A DNA stretch of 64,000 nt from Clostridia bacterium (GCA_017533795.1 JAFWIH010000005.1:130217-194216), one strand, 5' to 3'. Positions 48,637-49,037 are shown, counted from the stretch's first letter. A program made the numbers and translations. The notes: generated from the sequence alone by a model not told the origin.

Positions 48637-48665
48637 TTGACTTTTTTATAAAAAAAGTGTATAAT
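48637..48665 (+). promoter_or_regulatory. Consensus promoter driving a short noncoding transcript
   Basis: TTGACT (48637-48642), 17-nt spacer, TATAAT (48660-48665). Confidence 0.6.
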
Positions 48666-48671
48666 AAAAAT

Positions 48672-48756
48672 AGAAAATGAGAACCACAAAGTGGTTGCCA
48701 CGAAAAAAGTTAAAAATAAACCATTTCACTCGGCAAAGCAGAATGGTTTATTTTTT
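48672..48756 (+). ncRNA. Candidate antitoxin sRNA (about 85 nt) convergent with the small hydrophobic ORF
   Basis: Runs from the consensus promoter to a 14-bp terminator hairpin (48712-48755) plus T6. 5' hairpin AACCAC/GTGGTT. No SD or plausible ORF. Confidence 0.4.
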
Positions 48757-48865
48757 ATTTGCTCAAAATTACTACTAACGCAATAATCAAGGCAATAGCT
48801 ATGATAGTTACTTCTACTAAACCAAAGAATAGTAGATATATTATATGTAATAATACAATTTCCAT
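48755..48865 (-). CDS. 36-aa hydrophobic peptide, a type I toxin candidate
   Basis: GAGGTGG SD 5 nt before the ATG at 48865. Translation MEIVLLHIIYLLFFGLVEVTIIAIALIIALVVILSK. Shares its terminator hairpin with the convergent sRNA. Confidence 0.5.
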   Translation of the reverse strand: MEIVLLHIIYLLFFGLVEVTIIAIALIIALVVILSK

Positions 48866-49037
48866 AGCACCACCTCGCTTTCTCACAGAAGAAACTGTGA
48901 AGTTTAAAGGTGGCAACACACTCTGCTTATCTCATTTTCTTGTATTAGAGTGTACAATATTTTAAAATAAAAAACAAGCGAACACTTAAAAAAATTACAA
49001 AGATTATAGAAAATGTGAATAAAAGTAATAAAAAATC

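Follow-up and report, generated by a model that had tools for sequence, protein, structure and literature searches.

A 310-bp stretch of DNA from a Clostridia bacterium probably constitutes a functional chromosomal type I toxin-antitoxin (TA) module. The stretch lies within a segment of 64,000 nucleotides (GCA_017533795.1, JAFWIH010000005.1:130217-194216; hereafter the window, from whose first letter all coordinates are counted), and reading of both strands identified in it a gene for a 36-residue membrane-helix peptide, the putative toxin, and a convergent gene for an antisense small RNA (sRNA) of about 90 nt, the putative antitoxin. Because the whole unit is conserved in other genomes, the arrangement is more than a chance juxtaposition. 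Judged from searches of Pfam, NCBIfam, PHROGs and Rfam, none of which returned a match, the family to which the module belongs is previously undescribed.

Anatomy of the locus

All features named in a preliminary description of this DNA, which had been made from the sequence alone, were found where it had placed them. The feature that it had not mentioned is the toxin promoter, TTGTTT-17-TACACT. The elements of the module are as follows, with SD denoting the Shine-Dalgarno sequence and ORF an open reading frame.

48637-48665, plus strand: promoter of the antitoxin sRNA, TTGACT (48637-48642), 17-nt spacer, TATAAT (48660-48665), scoring 11/12
48671-48682, plus strand: 5' box of the sRNA, TAGAAAATGAGA, starting 5 bases after the -10 element
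48671-48763, plus strand: predicted antitoxin sRNA of about 90 nt with predicted ends, comprising the box, SL1, UGCCAC, an A-rich linker, the terminator and a U-run
48682-48696, plus strand: SL1, a 6-bp hairpin (AACCAC-AAA-GTGGTT), followed by GCCAC and the A-rich linker
48712-48755, both strands: bidirectional intrinsic terminator common to both RNAs, with a 15-bp stem (arms 48712-48726 and 48741-48755), forming the core of the antisense overlap
48755-48865, minus strand: toxin ORF of 36 amino acids plus TAA, MEIVLLHIIYLLFFGLVEVTIIAIALIIALVVILSK, with ATG at 48865-48863 and stop at 48757-48755
48870-48876, minus strand: SD sequence GAGGTGG, 4 nt upstream of the ATG and paired in the minimum-free-energy fold
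48882-48901, minus strand: inner leader hairpin UCACAG UUUCUUC CUGUGA, from the minimum-free-energy fold
48907-48914, minus strand: anti-SD GCCACCUU, pairing with the SD around the CACAG/CUGUG hairpin
48919-48928, minus strand: toxin mRNA 5' segment AAGCAGAGUG, directly after the box and complementary to AAACCAUUCUGCUU (48749-48736, minus strand), the arm and loop of the terminator at the 3' end of the same mRNA
48930-48941, minus strand: 5' box of the toxin mRNA, AAGAAAATGAGA, an inverted copy of the sRNA box and the start of the mRNA
48949-48983, minus strand: toxin promoter, with -10 TACACT (48954-48949), -35 TTGTTT (48977-48972), a 17-nt spacer and an upstream GTTCGC (48983-48978)

The plus-strand promoter, previously described as a consensus TTGACT-17-TATAAT, is the top-scoring promoter-like site between 47500 and 50000 (11/12). 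The preliminary description had derived from it a transcript of about 85 nt with no plausible ORF; the absence of coding capacity is borne out by the sRNA family, in which no conserved ORF was found and an AUG within the box meets stops at varying distances, and the length is corrected to about 90 nt. On the minus strand, the strong SD is indeed followed by a 36-residue ORF, for which AlphaFold predicts one helix, and the stop codon of this ORF directly abuts the terminator hairpin. The hairpin at 48712-48755 is common to both RNAs as had been proposed, with a stem of 15 bp rather than the 14 bp first given. The complementarity between the 3' ends of the two RNAs, earlier put at about 45 nt, is likewise present, its perfect part amounting to 44 nt (the hairpin) and at most about 60 nt, according to where the RNAs actually end, and it spans the toxin 3' untranslated region, the stop codon and the terminator.

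Conservation and distribution of the unit

The preliminary description had suggested a search for the peptide family in relatives and had made its proposal depend on conservation of the region as a unit in at least one other genome. Such conservation was found. DNA matches in relatives cover positions 48637-48940, that is, from the -35 element of the sRNA promoter to the 5' end of the toxin mRNA, and little else. Examination of about 120 related loci identified 103 sRNA-type starts, each of the form TTGAC-17-TATAAT-N5-box and with a nearly invariant box TAGAAAATGAGA. Of these 103 starts, 57 are opposed by a toxin gene that carries the same box at its 5' end and so constitute complete modules, and opposite most of the others stands the gene for a related peptide whose leader has diverged further. 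The distance from box to box is 260-305 bp across the family.

Across an entire order of uncultured gut Clostridia with small genomes, the family is frequent, occurring in at least 24% of 401 sampled genomes. A strict sRNA-start pattern was present in 97 of the 401 genomes and in 19 of the order's 50 genera, with up to 7 copies per genome, as against 7 hits in total for a reversed-pattern control. Of 36 congeneric genomes, about 20 gave peptide matches at E<1e-3, with as many as 6 copies. The carriers are uncultured gut "Clostridium sp." or Clostridia metagenome-assembled genomes, such as Clostridium sp. CAG:575, and the genome of the window itself (1.3 Mb in 23 contigs; guanine-cytosine (GC) content of the window 28.8%) harbors a single copy. 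Copies within one genome are diverged paralogues, which in some genomes comprise six from different subfamilies, and tandem pairs or triplets occur.

Most copies are located in ordinary chromosomal intergenic regions and not in prophages, and neither the GenBank phage collection nor the PLSDB plasmid collection yielded a match to the module. A tblastn comparison of eight flanking genes of the window with the related loci revealed none that is shared, yielding just two short partial matches (53-65 of 281 amino acids) to an XRE regulator. The neighbours elsewhere are mutually unrelated and include RsgA, AcpS, a calcineurin-like phosphoesterase (Metallophos), TetR, an MBL-fold hydrolase and, once, a TraG coupling protein. 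Since flanking genes are not shared, the module is conserved as a unit and moves independently of its surroundings.

The predicted toxin

The 53 distinct homologous peptides are 33-51 amino acids long, nearly all of them 33-40, and follow the consensus MVExxLLxIIYLLFxGLVGxTIIxFALIIxLVxILSK(Q). Two shorter subfamilies have in common a core …(T/S)(I/L)NVALL… and possess more polar tails (…IMWTNKQ and …YVNKIIDKE). AlphaFold, run with the family alignment, predicted a single helix spanning residues 2-35 of the window peptide (predicted local distance difference test score 95.9), and the grand average of hydropathy was 2.43 for this peptide, with a family median of 1.92.

Differences among the homologues at codon positions 1, 2 and 3 numbered 980, 487 and 1304, respectively, and 53.5% of single-nucleotide codon differences were synonymous in the ORF frame, whereas the share was 11-21% for the remaining sense frames and 18-37% for those of the antisense strand. 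This coding signature indicates that the peptide frame is under purifying selection. An ORF antisense to the peptide gene is open in just 29 of the 53 genes.

Predicted expression and translational control of the toxin mRNA

The two promoters of the module are of unequal quality. Across 56 modules, the sRNA promoters average 11.7/12 (5.75/6 at -35 and 5.98/6 at -10), whereas the toxin promoters average 8.7/12 (3.70/6 at -35 and 5.04/6 at -10). The sRNA promoter outscores the toxin promoter in 53 of the 56 modules and never scores below it; in the window, the toxin promoter TTGTTT-17-TACACT scores 7/12. A conserved GTTCGC (…TTTTGTTCGCTTGT…) stands directly upstream of the toxin -35 element in most family members and might serve as the half-site of a regulator or as an UP-like element. 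Its identification as a LexA/Cheo half-site was considered and rejected, as the second half-site is absent.

The 242-nt toxin mRNA has a minimum-free-energy fold of -68.7 kcal/mol (z = -5.5), and the pairing of CCACCT with the SD around a CACAG/CTGTG hairpin, as first read from the sequence, is part of this fold. In minimum-free-energy folds of 54 distinct leaders, the SD is sequestered in 52, its partner being the segment directly after the 5' domain. The SD/anti-SD helix occurs in several compensatory types (CCACC/GGUGG, UACCAC/GUGGUG, CCUCC/GGAGG and CGUAUCG/CGAUGCG), and the inner hairpin keeps its position while its sequence is swapped in other types (CUCAAC/GUUGAG, UACGA/UCGUA, CUCGA/UCGAG and GAUAGU/ACUAUC). 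The SD sequestration that had been recognized in the window as typical of type I toxin mRNAs is hence a conserved property of the family. Together, the promoter scores and the sequestered SD point, at the level of sequence, to an excess of antitoxin over toxin mRNA and to translational repression of the latter.

The predicted antitoxin RNA and the shared terminator

The predicted sRNA (93 nt, about 48671-48763) has a folding energy of -22.7 kcal/mol (z = -3.8), and its length across the family is 82-102 nt, with a median of 93. Hairpin SL1 is supported by covariation, with a score of 0.291 versus 0.189 in shuffles, a value reached in 0 of 500 shuffles, and with slid registers scoring at most 0.07. 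Standard pairs occupy 92.5% of SL1 cells, and double (compensatory) changes occur in 4 of the 6 pairs. The UGCCAC that follows SL1 was considered as a mimic of the anti-SD and rejected, because no more than 5-6 bp could form and the motif fails to track the CCUCC/GGAGG type. Complementarity between the 5' domain of the sRNA and its own terminator was not significant (p = 0.39).

The arms of the terminator vary among family types yet stay self-complementary, as exemplified by AAACCATT, CACCACAT, ACACATCT and AACAACACATT among others, and every type consists of a hairpin followed by a U-run despite the differing arms. Covariation of the terminator was judged from per-sequence folds, since a plain MAFFT alignment of the sRNA misaligns this element. 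The 3' overlap is the sole cognate-specific complementarity that was found between sRNA and toxin mRNA. A second interaction, between the 5' part of the sRNA and the toxin leader as in the par system, was examined and rejected, with energies of -16.5 kcal/mol for cognate and -17.1 kcal/mol for non-cognate pairs and a median rank of 31.5 of 56.

Proposed mechanism and comparison with known systems

In the mechanism that we propose for the TA module, the weak minus-strand promoter would give rise to a toxin mRNA of about 240 nt, whose leader fold, with GCCACCUU placed on the SD, would hold down translation of the single-helix membrane peptide of 36 residues. The near-consensus plus-strand promoter would supply the non-coding antitoxin RNA, which would end at the same bidirectional terminator. 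The complementary terminator hairpins may then make a kissing loop-loop contact that develops into a full duplex, and RNase III, for which the genome carries a gene, would cut this duplex and commit the toxin mRNA to decay, as in txpA/RatA and bsrG/SR4. Should the sRNA drop, the more structured toxin mRNA would be expected to outlast it and be translated, and the peptide would then probably harm the membrane. The biological role of such a module might lie in stabilizing the locus or an element, in a stress response or in phage defence.

A convergent 3' overlap, sequestration of the ribosome-binding site and cleavage of the duplex by RNase III are established for txpA/RatA, bsrG/SR4 and modules of Clostridioides difficile (PMC6563280). 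The likeness to txpA/RatA- and bsrG/SR4-type loci that was noted at the outset persists after the search for further contacts, in that the two RNAs overlap only at their 3' ends and no second cognate-specific 5' site was found. Like txpA/RatA, bsrG/SR4 and bsrE/SR5 of Bacillus subtilis, the module combines convergent RNAs complementary at their 3' ends only with a small single-helix hydrophobic toxin and a sequestered ribosome-binding site; RNase III can cleave the duplex in those systems (PMC6563280). It differs from this group in that the overlap consists mostly of the terminator itself (44 to about 60 nt) and in that the 12-nt box and a related 5' domain stand at the start of both RNAs. Membership in the TxpA/BsrG, BsrE/BsrH, YonT and Hol-Tox families was not found with the Pfam, NCBIfam and Rfam models, through which the comparison was made, TxpA, BsrG, RatA and SR4 not having been compared directly; since no membership in known toxin or RNA families was found, the likeness to txpA/RatA appears to be one of function and not of homology.

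The par system of Enterococcus faecalis pAD1 (Fst RNA I / RNA II) and its chromosomal relatives resemble the module in their convergent promoters, bidirectional terminator and 5' stem-loop over the SD. In par, the shared bidirectional intrinsic terminator has complementary loops that are able to start the interaction, and the 5' stem-loop sequesters the SD (PMC7472228). However, the direct repeats DRa and DRb provide par with a second, 5' interaction, whereas the 5' repeats of the present module are inverted in the DNA, so that sRNA and toxin mRNA carry the same and not complementary sequence. Because only the 3' overlap is cognate-specific, the module is grouped with txpA/RatA, bsrG/SR4 and bsrE/SR5 and not with par. 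The peptides also differ from Fst/Ldr toxins: the Fst PXXXG motif is absent, proline occurs in 1 of 53 peptides, and there was no hit to Pfam Fst_toxin.

Within Clostridia, the characterized type I TA systems are all from C. difficile, and previous searches by homology turned up almost none in the rest of the class (PMC6563280). The C. difficile modules, including CD2517.1-RCd8, CD2907.1-RCd9 and CD0956.2-RCd10, are similar in being convergent, overlapping and unannotated genes without homology to other toxins and with multiple paralogues (PMC6563280, PMC5961336). Their toxins are 34-59 amino acids long with a lysine-rich charged C-terminus, their complementary region is long, and they are located mostly in prophages or beside CRISPR arrays, whereas the peptides described here have 33-51 residues with a polar tail of 2-8 residues, the overlap is short and centred on the terminator, and the contexts are scattered. 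Membership in the C. difficile toxin families was likewise not found, as judged from the Pfam and NCBIfam searches. Type I TA systems are hard to detect by homology, and both genes of the present family were missed by current annotation because the family is absent from Pfam, NCBIfam, PHROGs and Rfam. No description of the peptide or sRNA family was found in the literature.

Evidence weighing against a TA module

Several observations weigh against the interpretation of the locus as a functional TA module. First, known families offer no support: the peptide and 24 family members had no match in Pfam or NCBIfam at E <= 10, and Rfam 15 returned only chance-level hits in the region (E>1), namely RAGATH-12 at 19 bits (cutoff 75) and STnc350 at 20.6 (cutoff 60). 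PHROGs likewise contained no match for the peptide family, and a 54-residue extended ORF matched only unnamed metagenome ORFs without Pfam domains in a large protein database. Second, shuffled leaders reach at least 7 paired SD nucleotides in 65% of cases; because this null is high, more weight is placed on the compensatory helix types than on the count of 52 in 54 leaders. Third, the toxin -10 element of the window, TACACT, is poorer than the family norm TATAGT, suggesting that this copy may be weakly expressed or decaying. Fourth, the polar tail of the window peptide is very short (…LSK). Many known Gram-positive type I toxins have a longer charged C-terminus, and some family members do possess longer tails, such as …WVDKQLHK or …VNKIIDKE.

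The main competing explanation is that the peptide is a harmless small membrane protein, such as a regulator or a complex subunit, that is tuned by a cis-antisense RNA and does not form a TA system. Gram-positive bacteria commonly possess small membrane proteins of a single helix that have regulatory roles (PMC10730256), the window peptide is almost wholly hydrophobic with a minimal polar tail, and its toxicity is a prediction. However, housekeeping small proteins are normally single-copy and syntenic, whereas here up to 6-7 diverged copies occur per genome, some in tandem arrays; the patchy presence (97 of 401 genomes) and the lack of a conserved neighbour gene also argue against such a protein. 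Furthermore, two layers of repression, SD sequestration and an antisense RNA from a stronger promoter, are typical of products that are kept off. We therefore consider this explanation quite improbable.

The box in phages and a possible link to infection

Occurrences of the 5' box extend beyond these TA modules. A scan of IMG/VR identified more than 119 viral stretches with the box motif, which contain 121 sites with full -35 and -10 elements, and in 77 of 104 cases the SD and ATG of a phage gene follow the viral box. Six large phage records (67-179 kb; G428-G433) each contain 6-11 copies of TATAAT-N5-TAGAAAATGAGA, with a control count of 0. The phage box sites and the module have a promoter consensus in common that extends beyond the searched pattern. 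In the TA-carrying clade, box promoters are almost all those of TA sRNAs (82 of 84). No mention of the 12-nt box was found in the relevant literature, and its occurrence in phage promoters offers a lead on promoter and leader signals in gut Firmicutes and their phages. True modules on viral contigs number just one or two; one predicted viral contig (L309; IMGVR_UViG_3300045988_136714, 40.7 kb, GC 26%) carries a complete module, with the peptide MVESALLSITYLLFFGLVGMTIINVALLIIICILLHRQ and a convergent sRNA promoter, and its GC content matches that of the TA-carrying clade. A third, imperfect box (TAGAAAATGTGA) lies at 49006-49017 (plus strand) in the window, 65 bp past the toxin promoter, with no convincing -10 or -35 element upstream.

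These observations bear on a refinement of the TA interpretation, by which the module would be a phage-responsive device of the abortive-infection type and a phage or host factor acting on the box would shift the balance of toxin and antitoxin. Both RNAs start with the box of the repeated promoters of large gut phages, and at least one true module resides on a predicted viral contig, but box-bearing phage loci have a GC content of 37%, against 27% in the TA-carrying clade, and may thus infect other hosts, and the likeness of the box could simply reflect a favoured combination of strong promoter and initial transcribed sequence. This refinement is accordingly regarded as highly improbable.

That the locus is a miniature mobile or repeated DNA element with imperfect inverted repeats of about 45 bp (promoter-plus-box ends), in which the ORF and RNA are incidental, is extremely improbable: the ends of the unit are indeed inverted repeats (the box plus ...GUGxxUUGCCAC on either strand) and the element is multi-copy, 260-305 bp long between its boxes and in variable contexts, but copies within a genome are diverged paralogues and not near-identical bursts, selection acts on the ORF frame, compensatory changes maintain pairing in SL1 and in the SD/anti-SD helix, conservation ends at the promoters with no flanking repeat seen by eye in the flanks inspected (target-site duplications were not searched systematically), and the genome of the window has only one copy.

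Complementarity between the ends of the toxin mRNA

Returning to the TA module, the 5' segment AAGCAGAGUG of the toxin mRNA and its 3' partner AAACCAUUCUGCUU form a duplex of -16.2 kcal/mol in the window. Among 10 independent family types, defined by terminator regions less than 75% similar, cognate 5'-3' duplexes average -16.2 kcal/mol, compared with -13.8 ± 0.9 kcal/mol for permuted pairs (p = 0.0036), and matched changes are seen between types, from GCAG/CUGC to GUAG/CUAC or ACAG/CUGU. Thermodynamic folding favours the terminator hairpin over the 5'-3' fold-back. The pairing could represent a hok-like lock that competes with sRNA binding. In hok/sok of Escherichia coli R1, the fbi/tac fold-back keeps full-length hok mRNA inert, 3' trimming activates it, and the antitoxin pairs with the 5' region; in aapA1/IsoA1 of Helicobacter pylori, the toxin mRNA is locked by a long-distance 5'-3' interaction. 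The module resembles hok/sok in the locus-specific complementarity between the 5' segment and the 3' end of the toxin mRNA, but differs in that the 3' partner is within the terminator and antitoxin-binding region, and there is no homology. Some toxin mRNAs need processing to become translatable (PMC6563280).

The 5' domains of the sRNA (48682-48701, plus strand, …GUGGUUGCCAC) and of the toxin mRNA (48929-48909, minus strand, …GUGUGUUGCCACC) vary in concert from locus to locus, with UGCUACC in both RNAs of one type and GGUUUUGCC in both of another. This concerted variation suggests that the inverted repeats undergo gene conversion or that the two RNAs have a partner in common. A joint reading of the fold-back and the box, in which the toxin mRNA would be a three-state switch with fold-back and sRNA binding mutually exclusive, and the box would tie the balance of toxin and antitoxin either to infection by phages or to a common RNA or transcription factor, is possible but rather unlikely.

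Diversity of copies within single genomes

Tandem modules, comprising two or three copies of different subfamilies within 1.6-3.1 kb, were observed at L063 (G025:C9:1-3100), L042 (G021:C32), L026 (G034:C24) and L124. Since terminator types differ among the copies of one genome, each sRNA could recognize its own toxin only. The more than 50 natural toxin variants, together with several terminator "specificity" types within single genomes, make the family a ready-made set for studying cognate recognition via terminator hairpins, SD sequestration and the possible 5'-3' lock. In addition, some sRNA genes face no intact peptide ORF (L042 1105+, L044, L046, L050, L081, L096 and others); at L044, L046 and L050, the downstream sequence, judged by eye, resembles the reverse complement of the end of a …LLHRQ-type ORF. 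Such sRNA genes appear to be remnants of modules in which the toxin has decayed and the antitoxin has been kept.

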